From a bacterium (GTDB taxonomy: Bacteria; Patescibacteriota; Minisyncoccia; UBA6257; WO2-44-18), in contig JAUYHP010000008.1 in assembly GCA_030689595.1 (NCBI GenBank), positions 32,589 to 96,588 of the forward strand: a stretch of DNA of 64,000 nt. The letters are read 5' to 3'. The notes beneath the pieces were generated by a model. It saw only the letters and a list, made by a program, of their open reading frames with translations, was not told the origin of the DNA and did no database searches. Positions 29,085 to 63,322 of the stretch are shown one piece after another. Made by a program: the position numbers and the translations under genes. Every line of letters starts with the position of its first letter. The first letter of the stretch is position 1.

Positions 29085-29969
29085 TCAATCCTGCACAATA
29101 ACTTTGGTGCCGACATCAGCCCAGGCATAAAGCTCCTTAGCTTTTGATGGAATAAGATTTACGCAGCCATTGGAGGAGGGCTTACCAAAATTTTGGTGCC
29201 AATATGTGCCGTGTATTACCGCGCCTTGACTAGTGAAATATAAATTCCAAGGCACGCCCGGAAGATCGTAATATTTTTCACTTATACCAGGTATCGGACC
29301 TTGCATATAACGACTGGGTGTTTTTTTAAAAACTGTAAAAATACCTCGTGGCGTAGGCGTGAGCTCTAGTCCCGTCGAGATGGATTCCTCTATAAATAGC
29401 TCATCACCATCATAAGCATAAAGTTTTTGCTCCAATCGGCTCACTATTATTTTTTTATTAGTTTTATCTGATCTAGCCGTTAAATTTTGCACACCTTCAT
29501 CAAGTAGAGCGATGACATAATCAGCTGCCACATACCAATCATCTTCTATGCGTTCAGGGTAGCGAATCCATTCATCAAAAACTATTTTATACCAAACTCG
29601 ACCGTCTCGCTCAACTTGGCCGCCAACTTTCAAGACAGCACCGATTCTCAATCGGGCTATTTTTTCATAATCTTCTCCCGGCCCAGATCTTACATTCAAA
29701 CAAGTGCCCACAAAATAAGCATCGCAACTATCAACCACCTCGATATATTCAAAAAGGACTTTTTCAATCGGAAGGATAATTTCCTCTCCACCACTTTCGG
29801 AGGCAATAACCACCGCCTCCTTACTCTGTAAATATGGATTAGTAATTGGTGAATTGGCTATAAACCAATTGGCTTGCAATATCACTATCGCCAACACTAT
29901 CACTAGCGCAATAAGTGCTCCAACCAATATCCCTACAACTTTTTTATGATACCCCAACGGCACGTGCAT
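29085..29969 (-). CDS. L,D-transpeptidase (YkuD) with N-terminal TM helix and SH3-like region
   Basis: HGTYWHQNFGKPSSNGCVNL matches the catalytic His/Cys signature. Confidence 0.75.
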   Translation of the reverse strand: MHVPLGYHKKVVGILVGALIALVIVLAIVILQANWFIANSPITNPYLQSKEAVVIASESGGEEIILPIEKVLFEYIEVVDSCDAYFVGTCLNVRSGPGEDYEKIARLRIGAVLKVGGQVERDGRVWYKIVFDEWIRYPERIEDDWYVAADYVIALLDEGVQNLTARSDKTNKKIIVSRLEQKLYAYDGDELFIEESISTGLELTPTPRGIFTVFKKTPSRYMQGPIPGISEKYYDLPGVPWNLYFTSQGAVIHGTYWHQNFGKPSSNGCVNLIPSKAKELYAWADVGTKVIVQD

Positions 29970-30005
29970 AATTTGATTATATCAGAAAAGCCTACCCCAT
30001 ACTCA

Positions 30006-30041
30006 CAACATTCTCACATTCTCGAGAATATGAGGTTGAGA
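30006..30041. repeat. Degenerate copy of the 36-bp palindromic element, followed by a second 18-bp palindrome (GTTGAGAGATCTCTCAAC)
   Basis: CAACATTCTCACATTCTCGAGAATaTGAGgtTGaG; the left arm is intact, and the right arm has about four mismatches relative to the copies at 60843 and 62971. Confidence 0.7.
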
Positions 30042-30056
30042 GATCTCTCAACAACA

Positions 30057-30093
30057 AAGCCCCCAAGTAGCTTTGGGGGCTTTGTTTATTTTA
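30057..30093 (+). terminator. Rho-independent terminator with no ORF upstream
   Basis: AGCCCCCAAG-TAGC-TTTGGGGGCT then TTGTTTATTTTA. Confidence 0.6.
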
Positions 30094-30301
30094 TGACTTA
30101 AGTTTTTCAAAAAACGTTCTTAGCTGTCTAAATGCTTTAGCTCGGTGACTGATGGCGTTTTCTTCCTCGAGTGTCATTTCGGCCAAAGATTTGTCGTAGC
30201 CATCTGGTCGAAATATGTCGCGGTGAAAATACAGAAGAGCTAGTCGCACAGCTAAAACAAGAGGGCTACCCGATTACGTAGTACGAGCCACAAAGAAGCC
30301 G

Positions 30302-58901: not shown

Positions 58902-59660
58902 TCACTTAGTTAATATCTCGACACCATTTTTAGTTATGGCTACTGTATGTTCAAAATGAGCCGATAAGCTACCATCGGCAGTAGCATAACTGTCGTCGTC
59001 TAGTTGGATAACTTCAGAGGTGCCAATGGCTACCATGGGTTCTATGGCAATCACCAAGCCAGGCTCAATTTTAAAACCACTCCCCTTTTGGCCCTCATTG
59101 AAAACTGATGGCTCCTCGTGCAGTTCTTTGCCAATTCCATGACCAGTTAACCCCTCCGATATATGCAATCCTTGAGCTTTAACATAACTACTTATGGCAT
59201 AGCCAATATCGCCCAACTTATTACCTACTTTTGCGGCGGCCACTCCCCTGTTCAATGCTTCGCGGGTAGTGTCAATTAATTTTTGTGCCTCAATAGAGAT
59301 TTCACCTATCGGTACAGTCCAGGCGGCATCGGCATTATAGCCATCGTAATTAACGCCAAAATCTAATTTCAAGATATCACCTGGCTTCAATAAATGCTCT
59401 CGCGGCACACCATGAACAATAACCTCATTGACTGAAGCGCAGATAGAACAGGGGTACGGCTTGATGGCGCCATAAGGCTGATAATTTAAGAATGACGGTT
59501 TGGCGCCGGCTTTTTCTATAAGATTTCTGGCGATAGTATCTAGATATTTTAATTTCACACCCGGCTTAGCCAATTCCAATATCTGCTTGGCGGTTGCGGC
59601 CAGAATCCTCCCGGCCTTTCTCATAATTTCAATCTCTTCTGGGGTTTTAATATGAATCAT
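58902..59660 (-). CDS. map: Methionine aminopeptidase type I
   Basis: Metal ligands are in the expected context (D...D...H...E...E; HGIGKELHEEP). Confidence 0.9.
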   Translation of the reverse strand: MIHIKTPEEIEIMRKAGRILAATAKQILELAKPGVKLKYLDTIARNLIEKAGAKPSFLNYQPYGAIKPYPCSICASVNEVIVHGVPREHLLKPGDILKLDFGVNYDGYNADAAWTVPIGEISIEAQKLIDTTREALNRGVAAAKVGNKLGDIGYAISSYVKAQGLHISEGLTGHGIGKELHEEPSVFNEGQKGSGFKIEPGLVIAIEPMVAIGTSEVIQLDDDSYATADGSLSAHFEHTVAITKNGVEILTK

Positions 59661-59679
59661 ATATTTTTATAATCCCACT

Positions 59680-60369
59680 CTAAAGTTTTAGTTTCTTGGC
59701 AACAGAAGCATGCACCTTAAACGGCAATGGCATGCCATTAACTTTTGTGATTTTGTAGCCACGCTTTTTTAATCCAGCCAAAATAGGAAAAGTGCGCTCT
59801 TGATACTCTTTTATCCTTGTCTTGAAAACTGATGGATTGTCCACTGTACGCTTGATCAACTTACCACCACATAACGGACAAGTTTTGTGTTTATGTAATG
59901 CATCGCTATATAAAACTGCCGTAGCACACACCGAACAAACCATCCGATATTTATTTCTTTTGATAGAGGCGTTGGGGTCAATATCTAAGAAAACTGGATA
60001 AATGTTCTGCTTGCCATAAGCTTTCTCCAAAACGCGCACTAGGCCAGTATGTTTATTATCGCCAAAGGCCTCAAACATTGTTCGTGGAGAACCACTAAAT
60101 ACAATATTAAATCCGGCCCTAGCTATCTCCTTAGCTTTGTTGGCCGTAACTTTTAATACAAAACTTGGCGTCATTAAAGCGCCGGAGTCAAATAGCTTGC
60201 CCTCACGTTGAATAATTCTATTTTTTTTATTACTCGGGTCGTGGACTAACTGCTCCAAATAGCGGCCAGTATCAAAATGGGTAAAGCCTTTTCGCCCAGT
60301 CAAAAGATTGGCTTGAGTGCCTTTCCCTGCCCCCGGTGGGCCATAAAATATAACTGCTATCTTCGCCAT
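59680..60369 (-). CDS. adk: Adenylate kinase with Zn-lid
   Basis: GPPGAGKGTQA P-loop; lid CSVCATA...CPLCGG. Confidence 0.9.
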   Translation of the reverse strand: MAKIAVIFYGPPGAGKGTQANLLTGRKGFTHFDTGRYLEQLVHDPSNKKNRIIQREGKLFDSGALMTPSFVLKVTANKAKEIARAGFNIVFSGSPRTMFEAFGDNKHTGLVRVLEKAYGKQNIYPVFLDIDPNASIKRNKYRMVCSVCATAVLYSDALHKHKTCPLCGGKLIKRTVDNPSVFKTRIKEYQERTFPILAGLKKRGYKITKVNGMPLPFKVHASVAKKLKL

Positions 60370-60409: not shown

Positions 60410-61417
60410 TTATCCGTGTCGGATCTCCATCACGTCCCCATCCTCAGCGACATATTCTTTGCCTTCGATTCTTAAAAAGCCCTTTTGGCGCGCTTGTGCC
60501 CAAGAACCGACTTCTAATAATTTTTGCCAATTTACAACCTCGGCTCGGATAAACTTCTTTTCAAAATCAGTATGGATAACTCCGGCGGCTTGCGGCGCTT
60601 TACTCCCCTGTCTGATTGTCCAGGCCCTGGTCTCATCTTTGCCAGTAGTGAAGAAGCTTATGAGCCCCAAGATCTCATACGACTTTTTGATTAGGGCCGA
60701 AAGATCTACGGATTGTGATAGGTCAGCAACTATATAATCGGCTCCAGAAGTTTTAATTTTTTCTATTAATTCTGGTGGCACATCGCCTTCTTGGCCATTT
60801 AATAAATACAGCTGTTTTTTAGTGGTCAAAAGGCTAAGACCCAACATTCTCACATTCTCGAGAATGTGAGAATGTTGCCACAAAGGTTCGCCCTTTTCTA
60901 AAAGCGACCTGGTCTCCCGTATGGTCTCTAAATCTTTCTTGGCTTGTTTATCGCCCGTCTTGGCCTCGCCCTCAACTCGCTTTAAAACTTTTTCAACGGT
61001 ATCCAAGTCTTTAAGAGCCAGCTCGGTATTGATTATTTCCATGTCCCTAATTGGATCAACTGAATTTTCTACATGAATAATCTCGCCGCTTTGAAAACAG
61101 CGCAAGACCATGATTATGGCATCAACCTCTCTAATGTGTGATAAAAACTGGTTGCCCAAACCTTCGCCTTTATTGGCCCCCCTAACTAAACCCGCAATGT
61201 CATAGAATTCTACAACCGCAGGGATTTTTTTGGCCGATTGGCTAAGCTCTGCCAATTTATCCACTCGCTCATCAGGCACAGGCACTATGCCGATATTGGG
61301 GTCAATGGTGGCAAATGGATAATTGGCAATATTAATCTCCAAATCTGTTATAGCCTTAAAAAGCGTCGATTTCCCGACGTTTGGCAGCCCGACTATACCG
61401 ATTGAAATATTAGCCAT
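60410..61417 (-). CDS. ychF: Ribosome-binding ATPase YchF, carrying an in-frame 36-bp palindromic insert
   Basis: [15 protein letters not shown]1 motif and a TGS-like C-terminus. Codons [13 protein letters not shown] are encoded exactly by the palindrome at 60843-60878. Confidence 0.85.
60843..60878. repeat. 36-bp perfect palindrome, intragenic copy
   Basis: CAACATTCTCACATTCTCGAGAATGTGAGAATGTTG. Confidence 0.9.
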
Positions 61418-61525
61418 AGATTATGATACTTTAGCAGAAAATATTGAATAAAAAAACTCCCATCCGCGCTTATGGATGGGAGTTGGGGTGCTACTTGTCA
61501 TATGGGAACCCGCTTACATGATTTG

Positions 61526-62893
61526 TCAAGCTAAATGCTTCGCTTCGAAATGCGGCTTAGCGCGTTCGATAGACACAACGTAAGCAGCTTTGCGAAGATT
61601 TGTATCGAGTTGTTCGGCGCGACTAGTTACTTGCGTGGTAGCCTTATGCAACATATCACTCATAGCTGCCAATACTGCATCTTTGTCGGCCATTGGAACT
61701 CGGTCATCACGAATATTAACATTATGCGCCCATTCGAAATATGACACCACTACGCCACCGGCATTGGCCAAAATATCTGGCACAACAATGACGTTGTGTC
61801 TTTCTAAAATATCGTCAGCACGATTAGTCGTCGGCCCGTTAGCGCCTTCCAAGACAAATTCACAATTATCACCGATCACATCGGCATTGTTCTTATCAAT
61901 CACATTTTCTAAAGCCGCTGGTACAAAAACGTTGCACTTCAATGACATAAACTCCTCATGATTGATGCCAGAGGCATCAGCATAGCCATTAACACTGCGT
62001 AGTGTATTGTTGGGATTGTCATAAACGTATTGCCAAAGCTTATCAACATCAATTCCGCTCGGGCTATGGATAGCTCCATGCTCGTCGGAAATAGCAATAA
62101 CTTTATAACCGGCTTCTACAGCAAACTTGGCAAAATGCGCGCCAACATTGCCGAAGCCCATTACTTTAACCTCGCAACCATTTCTATCTTTGCCATAGAC
62201 ATCCAAAATCTTATTAAGCACTTGCACCAAGCCATAGCCAGTAGCTTCGGTTCGGCCCGGGATGCCGTCCAAATCTTCGCCAATTGGCTTACCAGTAACA
62301 ACTCCGGCAAAGCGAGCATCTTCGCGAGAACGACGCAGCCTAGCATAATACTGGCGGATCCAGTTCATAACCGTAGCATTAGTGCCAATATCAGGTGCTG
62401 GCACATCACGAAATGGCCCCAGAATATTTCTTTCATTCATAGCCTCAACTAAGGCCTCGGTAACCTTTTTGAGTTCTTGCGCGGAAAGTTCACGCGGATT
62501 GACGGCTACGCCGCCCTTGGCGCCACCCCATTTAATACCTAATAGCCAACACTTCAAGCTCATTTCCATAGCGTGGCCTTTCATCATCTCAACATTTACA
62601 GCCGGATGATACCTTAAACCGCCTTTGTGTGGCTTATCAGTGTGCGGCGATCTATGCCAAACTCGCACAGCTCGAAACTCTCTCAAGCTACCATCGTCCA
62701 TACGAACTTCAATATCGGACGCCCATTCCATTTTCACGCTACACAACTTATGTACCAGCCAATCATCTAAGTCTAAGATATTGGCCGCATCTTTAATGCG
62801 ATCAATGATATGATAGACATCGTTGTTTTCTTGAGCCATAGCAGACTCCCATTGCCGCGCCGTAGCCATGCCTGCCGGTAGGTAGTATGGCAT
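61526..62893 (-). CDS. gdhA: NAD(P)-specific glutamate dehydrogenase
   Basis: KWGGAKGGV (the GGxKGG lysine motif) and the GFGNVGAHFA Rossmann motif. The start is possibly an internal M. Confidence 0.85.
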   Translation of the reverse strand: MPYYLPAGMATARQWESAMAQENNDVYHIIDRIKDAANILDLDDWLVHKLCSVKMEWASDIEVRMDDGSLREFRAVRVWHRSPHTDKPHKGGLRYHPAVNVEMMKGHAMEMSLKCWLLGIKWGGAKGGVAVNPRELSAQELKKVTEALVEAMNERNILGPFRDVPAPDIGTNATVMNWIRQYYARLRRSREDARFAGVVTGKPIGEDLDGIPGRTEATGYGLVQVLNKILDVYGKDRNGCEVKVMGFGNVGAHFAKFAVEAGYKVIAISDEHGAIHSPSGIDVDKLWQYVYDNPNNTLRSVNGYADASGINHEEFMSLKCNVFVPAALENVIDKNNADVIGDNCEFVLEGANGPTTNRADDILERHNVIVVPDILANAGGVVVSYFEWAHNVNIRDDRVPMADKDAVLAAMSDMLHKATTQVTSRAEQLDTNLRKAAYVVSIERAKPHFEAKHLA

Positions 62894-62970
62894 AGGCGGG
62901 ACACAATTGAGTTATTTAAATATCAAGCTTCTGCCCTCATTCAATAAAATTAATGGGGGTGCGTCAACCC

Positions 62971-63018
62971 CCCACACAACATTCTCACATTCTCGAGAAT
63001 GTGAGAATGTTGTGTGGG
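62971..63018. repeat. 48-bp perfect palindrome (the 36-bp element extended by 6 bp on each side), preceded by a GGGGGT...ACCCCC hairpin
   Basis: CCCACACAACATTCTCACATTCTCGAGAATGTGAGAATGTTGTGTGGG, in the gdh upstream region. Confidence 0.9.
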
Positions 63019-63133
63019 AAGGCCGACTTGCTCCGTCACCTTAGCTTCGTGAAAGTTCATGGCAGGCCTCTAAGCAAAAATATCGGGGAAATAAAAAGGC
63101 CCCTCCGATGTTAATCAGAGGGGCCTACTCGGT

Positions 63134-63322
63134 ATGTATATAGGCGACCAATTGGGAGACGTAGTTGCTGCCAATAACGCCGGCTGGGTATCAGTCGCCT
63201 TTACCAAGGGCCTACACACTCGCGATAAGCTGGCCGAAGGACAACCCGATCATTGGATCAAAAAGCCTTCTAATATTTTGGGCCTACCGATTTTGAAAAA
63301 AGAAACTACGGATGACAAGTAA
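63134..63322 (+). pseudogene. C-terminal fragment of a HAD-superfamily hydrolase
   Basis: Only HAD motif IV (MYIGDQLGDVVAANNAGW) is present; the 62-aa ORF has no N-terminal catalytic motifs. Confidence 0.4.

Follow-up and report, generated by a model that had tools for sequence, protein, structure and literature searches.

Small winged-helix repressors of the ArsR/SmtB type, such as SmtB, CzrA, and CadC, are autoregulated: their operators are imperfect inverted repeats that overlap the repressor's own promoter, further sites lie at other genes, and the genes under control belong to a metal-efflux operon. Operators of classical repressors can also reside within coding sequences, as do lac O2 in lacZ, gal OI in galE, the PurR site in purB, and the roadblock sites of CcpA and CodY. 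HlyU of Vibrio, itself a member of the ArsR/SmtB family, serves as anti-silencer or activator for a small number of virulence loci; it binds inverted-repeat or palindromic DNA able to form a cruciform and attenuates a repressive cruciform at the palindrome (PMC10325908). Here we describe a palindromic DNA element in a 64-kb stretch of a Patescibacterial genome (contig JAUYHP010000008.1 of assembly GCA_030689595.1, positions 32,589 to 96,588; hereafter the window), which is probably the binding site, or operator, of an ArsR/SmtB-like winged-helix regulator of ~88–110 residues widespread in the Patescibacteria, also termed the candidate phyla radiation (CPR). To our knowledge, almost no work exists on transcriptional regulation in these bacteria, and full-text literature searches recovered no description of this motif or of the regulator, and no published regulon for these organisms; what they returned concerned shRNA loops and unrelated ArsR proteins. 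Operators and autoregulated winged-helix proteins of this type are in themselves well known; the unusual features are the spread of the system across CPR lineages and a conserved, dual-coding site within the gene ychF.

The window holds three copies of the element, the third located by a half-site search and later with a position weight matrix (PWM):
62971 to 63018, no strand: site 3, a 48-bp perfect palindrome upstream of gdh, whose 32-bp core at 62979–63010 reads (ACATTCTC)2(GAGAATGT)2.
60842 to 60877, no strand: site 2, a 36-bp perfect palindrome in ychF, codons 181–192.
30004 to 30032, no strand: site 1, a half-degraded copy with an intact left arm and a right arm that breaks off after GAGAATATGAG.

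Site 3 was the starting point, and the preliminary description of a perfect 48-bp palindrome in the gdh upstream region is borne out: arms of 24 nt each (62971–62994 and 62995–63018) are 100% complementary and abut without a spacer. The 32-nt core, ACATTCTCACATTCTCGAGAATGTGAGAATGT, is found exactly twice in the window and in none of 100 shuffles. It is flanked first by CACAAC/GTTGTG, an extension typical of the family described below, and outermost by CCC/GGG, which is a local feature only. PWM scores of 59.5, 54.1, and 37.3 bits for sites 3, 2, and 1 stand apart from everything else in the window, with nothing intermediate, a next-best score of −10, and a shuffle maximum of 4.8; a separation of this kind (37–60 bits against −10, and shuffles at or below 4.8) provides a handle for regulon reconstruction in metagenome-assembled genomes (MAGs). 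An independent assembly from sequencing run SRR13727534 (Logan contig L119) is 100% identical to window positions 63000 to 60848; it covers only 62971–63000 of site 3, and the outer 18 nt (63001–63018) rest on the window assembly alone. Both ends of this contig fall inside the site 2 and site 3 palindromes, and at least one assembler thus breaks contigs at the repeat, a point of practical note for those assembling such genomes. SRR13727534 also contains sequence from another, related organism (L116).

The element is not confined to this genome. When one genome per species was scanned with the central 20-mer, 33 loci (38 exact copies) were recovered in ~25 MAGs, nearly all of them Patescibacteria/CPR of many classes, among them Saccharibacteria, Parcubacteria, Moranbacteria, Staskawiczbacteria, Nomurabacteria, and Paceibacterota. 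Three loci carry labels of other phyla; because one of these, L022, contains the regulator gene, its label possibly reflects mis-binning. Viral contigs searched with a 16-mer gave four matches, none a full site and none accompanied by the regulator. The window organism itself belongs to the Parcubacteria side; its YchF is 100% identical to a protein of an NCBI MAG, and Candidatus Harrisonbacteria are the nearest relatives with a name. The preliminary description named a lack of additional copies as grounds for refutation; copies in fact number in the hundreds across CPR genomes. Flanking sequences are unrelated between loci, such that the conserved unit measures ~32–40 bp and no larger surrounding element is present. 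From 234 distinct pooled sites, the consensus is nACAACATTCynACATTCTy on the left of the centre and rAGAATGTnrGAATGTTGTn on the right, that is, four GAATGT hexamers, two direct and two inverted, in an 8-bp register. Information content is high in the ACATTC hexamers, whereas each arm has two variable positions with little information and the two bases at the centre carry 0.5 bit each. Most members of the family are imperfect palindromes, with 2–9 asymmetries over a scored length of 40 nt (20 per arm once the 6-nt flanks outside the core are counted), and some asymmetries recur, with ATTCCAAC on one arm opposite CTCAC on the other in identical form at several loci. Sites also avoid the interiors of long open reading frames (ORFs), where 18 of 246 (7%) are located, compared with 62% of bases. 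By its sequence, site 3 is a genuine member of this family of putative operators.

The structure of the consensus bears directly on the suggestion that the XhoI-containing centre marks a target of a restriction-modification or nicking enzyme. CTCGAG is indeed central in all three window copies. Yet conservation within the motif is lowest there: information at each of the two central positions is only 0.5 bit, CTTGAG, CTCAAG, CTGCAG, and CTATAG are frequent at the centre across the family, and conservation lies instead in the flanking hexamers. In the window, moreover, most of the 14 occurrences of CTCGAG fall outside the sites. As the centre is variable and poor in information, the restriction-target proposal fails, and we assign it virtually no chance of being correct. 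Two other proposed roles, as a transcriptional insulator or a recombination hotspot, also lack support, since nothing found speaks for either. Site 3 is explained as a regulatory site, and not as an element of recombination, insulation, or restriction.

The palindrome is tied to a regulatory protein chiefly by a reciprocal association between the two. In 15 of the 33 loci found through the palindrome, a winged-helix protein of ~90–100 residues with the pattern ..KQLERHLKGVANHRRIEIL..CNFKTISGHT.KLV.AGLV.K.Y.GR.V.H.LSPYG.. is encoded beside it, and a mismatch-tolerant scan (28-mer, up to 7 mismatches, no matches in shuffles) revealed that the regulator gene is bracketed by two palindromes. Sampling also ran in the opposite direction, with 80 metagenome loci retrieved through an alignment of the regulator (A1), irrespective of any palindrome. 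In all 75 assessable loci, a site lies no more than 150 bp upstream of the regulator gene, and in 69 of 77 one lies at or just after its stop codon, with none in shuffled loci in either case. Both sites are present in 64 of the protein-first loci, which contain 39 further sites nearby, and the paired sites that bracket the regulator gene lie 330–400 bp apart. The downstream site often encodes the C-terminus of the regulator itself (..TFSHS* or ..TFQHS*) through its left arm and supplies the TGA stop at its centre. This arrangement was seen in L003, L012, L020, L064, L080, L085, L096, and others, and some loci read through into ..SRECENV.., the in-frame translation of the palindrome.

An AlphaFold2 model of the regulator built from 38 homologues (predicted local distance difference test score 93.3) has an H-H-H-beta-beta-H topology, with helices at residues 4–27, 34–41, 45–57, and 76–90 and strands at 61–66 and 69–74, corresponding to a long N-terminal helix, a helix-turn-helix (HTH), a beta-hairpin wing, and a C-terminal helix. 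The top Foldseek matches in the PDB are CzrA, SmtB, CadC, HlyU, and SqrR, with full-length template-modelling scores of ~0.75, and the predicted model thus has the ArsR/SmtB winged-helix fold. Sequence scores are less generous: the regulator reaches 36.3 bits against a threshold of 55 for NCBIfam NF033788 (HTH_metalloreg, ArsR/SmtB) and 21.6 against 22 for Pfam HTH_5, and it scores 25.3 against 24.6 for MarR. The nearest solved sequences are HlyU (E = 0.003), CzrA, and ArsR, with E values of 0.003 to 0.03, and there are weak matches to AspA, Sul12a, and Lrs14. Public sources label the protein only as 'hypothetical' or as a 'predicted transcriptional regulator.' Model and scores together suggest a divergent ArsR/SmtB-like winged-helix protein that is not a called member of the family.

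The resemblance to SmtB, CzrA, and CadC accordingly has limits. Shared features include the small winged-helix protein, a palindrome overlapping the regulator's own promoter, and additional sites at other genes. Among the 38 sequences, the invariant residues include H51 and H72, and C43 is nearly invariant; inspection of the same sequences identified neither a CXC motif nor an acidic/His cluster in the C-terminal helix, and no canonical metal-site motif (alpha3/alpha3N Cys or alpha5 Asp/His/Glu) was seen among the invariant residues. The operator also differs, consisting of four GAATGT hexamers over 32–40 bp, with a second operator that overlaps the stop codon, and the targets form a broad and variable set rather than a metal-efflux operon.

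Where the palindrome lies upstream of the regulator gene, -10-like hexamers oriented towards that gene, often with a TG extension, are enriched at +18, +21, and +25 relative to the centre of the palindrome (in 14, 15, and 7 of 86 cases). From these offsets we infer that the palindrome occupies approximately −48 to −15 of the regulator promoter and covers the -35 region, a classical geometry for repression by occlusion. A relationship between the type of centre and the -10 offset, with TTGAGA serving as a -35 box, amounted only to a trend and is not relied on. Protein and site also vary together. Regulators of a Gly type, with a K-T-[IV]-S-G-H recognition helix, are associated with ATTCT half-sites in 29 of 30 cases (6/6 loci), and those of a Glu type with ATTCC in 145 of 304 half-sites (38/61 loci) and with T at the same position in 155. 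Conversely, among palindrome-first loci, which were selected for a T-type site, 12 of 14 regulators are of the Gly type, as compared with 6 of 76 among protein-first loci. Because the window sites are T-type, the window genome is predicted to encode a Gly-type regulator: a protein of ~90 residues with ..KG[VI]ANHRRI[ED]IL.., a Gly-type K-T-[IV]-S-G-H-T helix, and two flanking ATTCTCAC-type palindromes. The expectation in the preliminary description of an operator with a small HTH partner agrees with the comparative evidence, namely, the association at 15/33 and 75/75 loci, the -10 offsets, and the covariation.

These data also speak to the possibility that the element operates at the RNA level, as a stable transcribed hairpin that terminates, stabilises, or is cleaved (e.g. 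by RNase III) at the 3′ end of the regulator mRNA, in the ychF mRNA, and in the gdh leader. The predicted RNA hairpin, taken with flanks, is very stable (−57.3 kcal/mol, z −8), one copy regularly overlaps the regulator stop codon, the copies of one genome are flanked by A- and T-tracts in the manner of a bidirectional terminator (L019, L023, L026), and a ychF homologue (L117, below) displays a symmetric compensated change. However, the hexamer sequence is kept across distant CPR classes even though structure-only elements drift in sequence, and many sites are asymmetric, with the pairing of ATTCCAAC and CTCAC recurring identically. Because the -10 boxes lie downstream of the upstream sites, these sites are probably untranscribed, and an operator base that covaries with a recognition-helix residue is equally at odds with an RNA function. 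Nor are the palindromes recognised as RNA elements: an Rfam scan of the whole window returned a tRNA as its only match, and intrinsic-terminator scans called other hairpins in the region and not the palindromes, whose stem is A+T-rich and whose window copies are without a T-tract. The promoter geometry is likewise left unexplained by an RNA hairpin. We regard an RNA-level role as unlikely overall, although it may still apply to the transcribed copies, those at the 3′ end of the regulator gene and in ychF.

A further alternative is a structural or architectural site, at which the winged-helix protein binds or suppresses cruciforms or organises DNA, acting through structure or looping in the manner of HlyU or of chromatin organisers of the AspA/Lrs14 type. 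Perfect, spacer-less palindromes of 36–48 bp can extrude cruciforms, and for the 48-bp palindrome of site 3, with a DNA hairpin energy of −24.8 kcal/mol (z −10.9), extrusion would be physically plausible. HlyU, with its cruciform-attenuating activity, is the closest solved relative by sequence, and as at the gdh site in the window, the HlyU site lies upstream of rather than on the core promoter; the weak matches to AspA, Sul12a, and Lrs14 and the paired sites bracketing the regulator gene fit the same picture. Set against this, most members of the CPR family, unlike the HlyU site, are imperfect palindromes whose 2–9 asymmetries would make them extrude poorly, and the fixed -10 offset points to ordinary promoter occlusion. 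An architectural role involves the same protein and the same site as the operator and differs only in mechanism, and we consider it very unlikely as the primary explanation.

As an operator system, the element would function as follows. The upstream site, by covering the -35 region of the regulator's own promoter, would mediate autorepression by occlusion, and the stop-codon site would control or block entry into the next gene. Further sites precede variable genes, a good number of them for enzymes of nucleotide or DNA hygiene or for accessory functions. In the window, site 3 lies ~62 bp upstream of the putative gdh transcription start and beside a remnant of a HAD hydrolase gene, site 1 precedes an L,D-transpeptidase gene, and site 2 may act within ychF as a roadblock or looping partner, by analogy with the intragenic operators introduced above.

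The genes that begin just downstream of non-autoregulatory sites are heterogeneous. They include a group for nucleotide and DNA hygiene, nucleases, and restriction-type functions (NUDIX at 4 loci, an HhH-GPD glycosylase, MsrA, HAD, a metallophosphoesterase, His_Phos_1, CYTH, SNase, a PD-(D/E)XK nuclease, NYN, REase_MTES_1575/DUF559 at 6 loci, DpnI, and DNA methylases) and others (GNAT, radical SAM, Mur ligase, LepA, and, in L019, a class-I tRNA synthetase with YchF next in order). The only recurring theme seen among these targets is hygiene of nucleotides or DNA together with accessory functions. The most frequent neighbour other than the regulator is a protein of ~250 residues that starts with ..VLVGVLKxKRDLxILLxExWYRIPV.. 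and ends in a REase_MTES_1575/DUF559 domain (L032, L064, L065, L101, L104, L108). Some copies lie within genes. Two Staskawiczbacteria genomes carry one at an orthologous position in a pduL-like gene (L021 ~5093, L027 ~5083), and other copies fall in an arginyl-tRNA-synthetase-like, a PP2C-like, and a 517-residue ORF (L029 ~1244, L015 ~1032, and L016 ~5142); the identities of all these genes were read from the N-termini.

The copy within ychF has the following surroundings:
60410 to 61417, minus strand: ychF, encoding the redox-regulated ATPase YchF (Pfam MMR_HSR1 and YchF-GTPase_C), which carries site 2.
61455 to 61484, minus strand: an intrinsic-terminator-like hairpin with a T-tract, between gdh and ychF.
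61526 to 62893, minus strand: gdh, encoding a Glu/Leu/Phe/Val dehydrogenase (Pfam ELFV_dehydrog), the candidate target of site 3.

The preliminary description had a ychF–gdh operon bracketed by two copies of the palindrome. The second copy exists, but it is intragenic, occupying exactly 12 in-frame codons of ychF rather than flanking it, and a single operon is doubtful given the strong terminator-like hairpin and T-tract (61484–61455, minus strand) separating gdh from ychF. The peptide encoded by site 2 aligns without gaps to solved YchF structures, and there is thus no net insertion; among the 120 closest YchF homologues, many have HS[HND][IV]L[EK]N[VI]RM at this position. In three relatives, the same codons carry variant palindromes like those found at regulator genes, operator-type changes such as CCAAC and CTCAAG included: CATTCTCACATTCTTGAGAATGTAAGAATA in L114 (80% identity), CATTCCAACATTCTCAAGAATGTCCGAATG in L115 (77%), and CATTCTGACGTTCTTGAGAACGTAAGAATG in L117, a Harrisonbacteria genome (75%), where ATT>GTT on one arm is matched by AAT>AAC on the other. 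In L019, from a distant lineage without the ychF-internal site, a site is located upstream of the operon that contains ychF.

Such findings are pertinent to whether the palindrome is a mobile or selfish repeat, similar to repetitive extragenic palindromic (REP) sequences, Rickettsia palindromic elements (RPEs), or miniature inverted-repeat transposable elements (MITEs), that spreads by insertion, coding regions included. The likeness is evident in that all are short palindromic repeats, and all can occupy genes without disrupting the frame; copies within one genome are identical, two of the three core frames are open and some in-ORF copies keep the frame, and an assembler breaks contigs at the copies. 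Still, the ychF copy adds no length compared with the solved YchF structures, and its presence in the same codons of relatives with 75–80% identity and diverged sequence implies vertical descent. A recent insertion into ychF is ruled out by the gap-free alignment and the orthologous conservation, and since the same codons are involved and no length was added, the ychF site is old, vertically inherited, and constrained at the DNA level. Across loci, flanks share nothing beyond ~40 bp, and no target-site duplication was seen on reading. Only 3 copies, none intermediate, are present in 64 kb. The constant partner, finally, is a gene for a DNA-binding winged-helix protein and not a transposase; none was present among the listed or annotated flanking ORFs, although no dedicated search for REP-associated tyrosine transposases was made. 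In low copy number, orthologous and vertically inherited position, absence of net insertion, and type of partner, the element thus departs from REPs, RPEs, and MITEs, and a mobile origin is highly improbable.

Read instead as an operator, site 2 resembles lac O2, gal OI, the PurR site in purB, and the CcpA/CodY sites, as a high-affinity operator that lies within coding sequence and whose DNA is itself conserved, with a looping or roadblock role suggested by analogy. It differs from these in that a palindrome of 30–36 bp shapes a conserved peptide of 10–12 residues in the near-universal YchF across a whole clade, and it would constitute a clear case of dual coding, in which a regulatory DNA motif constrains a protein sequence. 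Directly after ychF lie putative adk and map genes (58902–60369, minus strand; identities by reading of the translations), away from their usual place at the end of the ribosomal-protein spc cluster.

Two additional features lie on either side of site 3:
62955 to 62972, minus strand: a G5-N8-C5 'hairpin' whose loop holds a -35-like TTGACG.
63134 to 63322, plus strand: a C-terminal fragment of a HAD hydrolase (Pfam Hydrolase_like, 5e-07), a 62-residue ORF 116 bp to the right of site 3.

The preliminary description set a G5/C5 hairpin beside the palindrome. The letters, GGGGGTGCGTCAACCCCC, are present at 62955–62972 and overlap the palindrome by 2 nt, but the stability of the fold is no better than chance (DNA −4.7 kcal/mol, z −1.8, with 10 of 200 shuffles at least as good), and a simple terminator scan flagged it only as a weak terminator-like site. 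It is also absent from L012, the one other locus checked that shares the adjacent TGCGTCAACC motif and in which only TTGACGCA recurs, and as a separate element it was therefore rejected. On the minus strand, site 3 is followed by three more G's, TTGACG (62967–62962), 17 nt, and TTGAAT (62944–62939), leading towards gdh. By reading, L012 has the same TTGACGCA beside its palindrome, then 17 nt and TATAAA, before a divergent gene, and because of this shared arrangement the 'G5/C5 hairpin' is best read as a -35-like box amid chance G/C runs, with a putative promoter role. The palindrome centre would then lie near −62 of the gdh promoter. The longest possible gdh ORF begins at 62893, but translation probably starts at 62839, ~100 nt beyond TTGAAT; this start is preceded 7 nt upstream by GGGAG and yields a 437-residue product identical to database protein P0241.

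On the other side of site 3, the HAD fragment is missing its N-terminal two thirds and may represent what is left of an earlier target gene on the plus strand; the region 63097–63322 as a whole looks like a degraded former neighbour. A minus-strand terminator-like hairpin at 63097–63126, in the gap between the fragment and site 3, has no obvious gene to serve. L018 carries a complete HAD gene 42 nt from its palindrome centre, and a link between the two HAD sequences was sought; BLASTP detected no similarity between them, and the candidate was set aside.

Several observations weigh against the interpretation of the palindrome as an operator. Some sites are intragenic (in ychF, pduL-like, and argS-like genes). 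The copies in the window genome are perfect over 36–48 bp, which is more than recognition by a protein needs, and at least one symmetric compensated change (L117) is on record; together, the long perfection and the compensated change may indicate that the ability to form a hairpin or cruciform is additionally selected or homogenised. By locus, residue and base covary significantly (Fisher p = 0.005) in a test not corrected for phylogeny. A tblastn search found no regulator gene in the 64-kb window. Site 3 itself overlaps no recognisable core promoter on either side and lies upstream of the -35-like TTGACG, a position more typical of activation. At four gdh homologue loci in other CPR genomes (L120–L123, 54–59% identity), no site was found within 3 kb with up to 9 mismatches allowed; gdh is therefore rejected as a conserved target, and the effect of site 3 on gdh is uncertain. 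Site 3 may now control gdh, in one direction or the other, or it may be a relic of a degraded divergent gene.

Even with these points in mind, the combination of an information-rich operator and an identifiable partner, extending from Saccharibacteria to Parcubacteria, offers a testable regulon model. It is tempting to extend this model to a phylum-wide CPR system in which a dual-coded YchF operator imposing HS[HND][IV]LEN[VI]RM and structure-based (cruciform or hairpin) recognition with paired sites would control a global nucleotide/DNA hygiene or stress regulon; at present, an extension of this breadth seems to us rather doubtful.

Site 1, the third copy in the window, has its centre 54 nt upstream of the start of a YkuD/SH3 gene (29085–29969, minus strand; L,D-transpeptidase, Pfam YkuD). 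TGATATAAT is located at 29967–29985 on the minus strand, and because it lies only 6 nt before the ATG, the transcript may be leaderless, which would place the site 1 centre near −55. At the point where the right arm of site 1 should continue, there is a separate 18-bp perfect palindrome, GTTGAGAGATCTCTCAAC (30033–30050), followed by a terminator-like hairpin at ~30057–30083. Beyond these, a 52-residue ORF (30091–30249, minus strand) aligns with no more than the final 34 positions of the Ham1p_like (ITPase/RdgB) profile and, judged from this partial match, is probably a second truncated 'house-cleaning' gene remnant beside a palindrome site.

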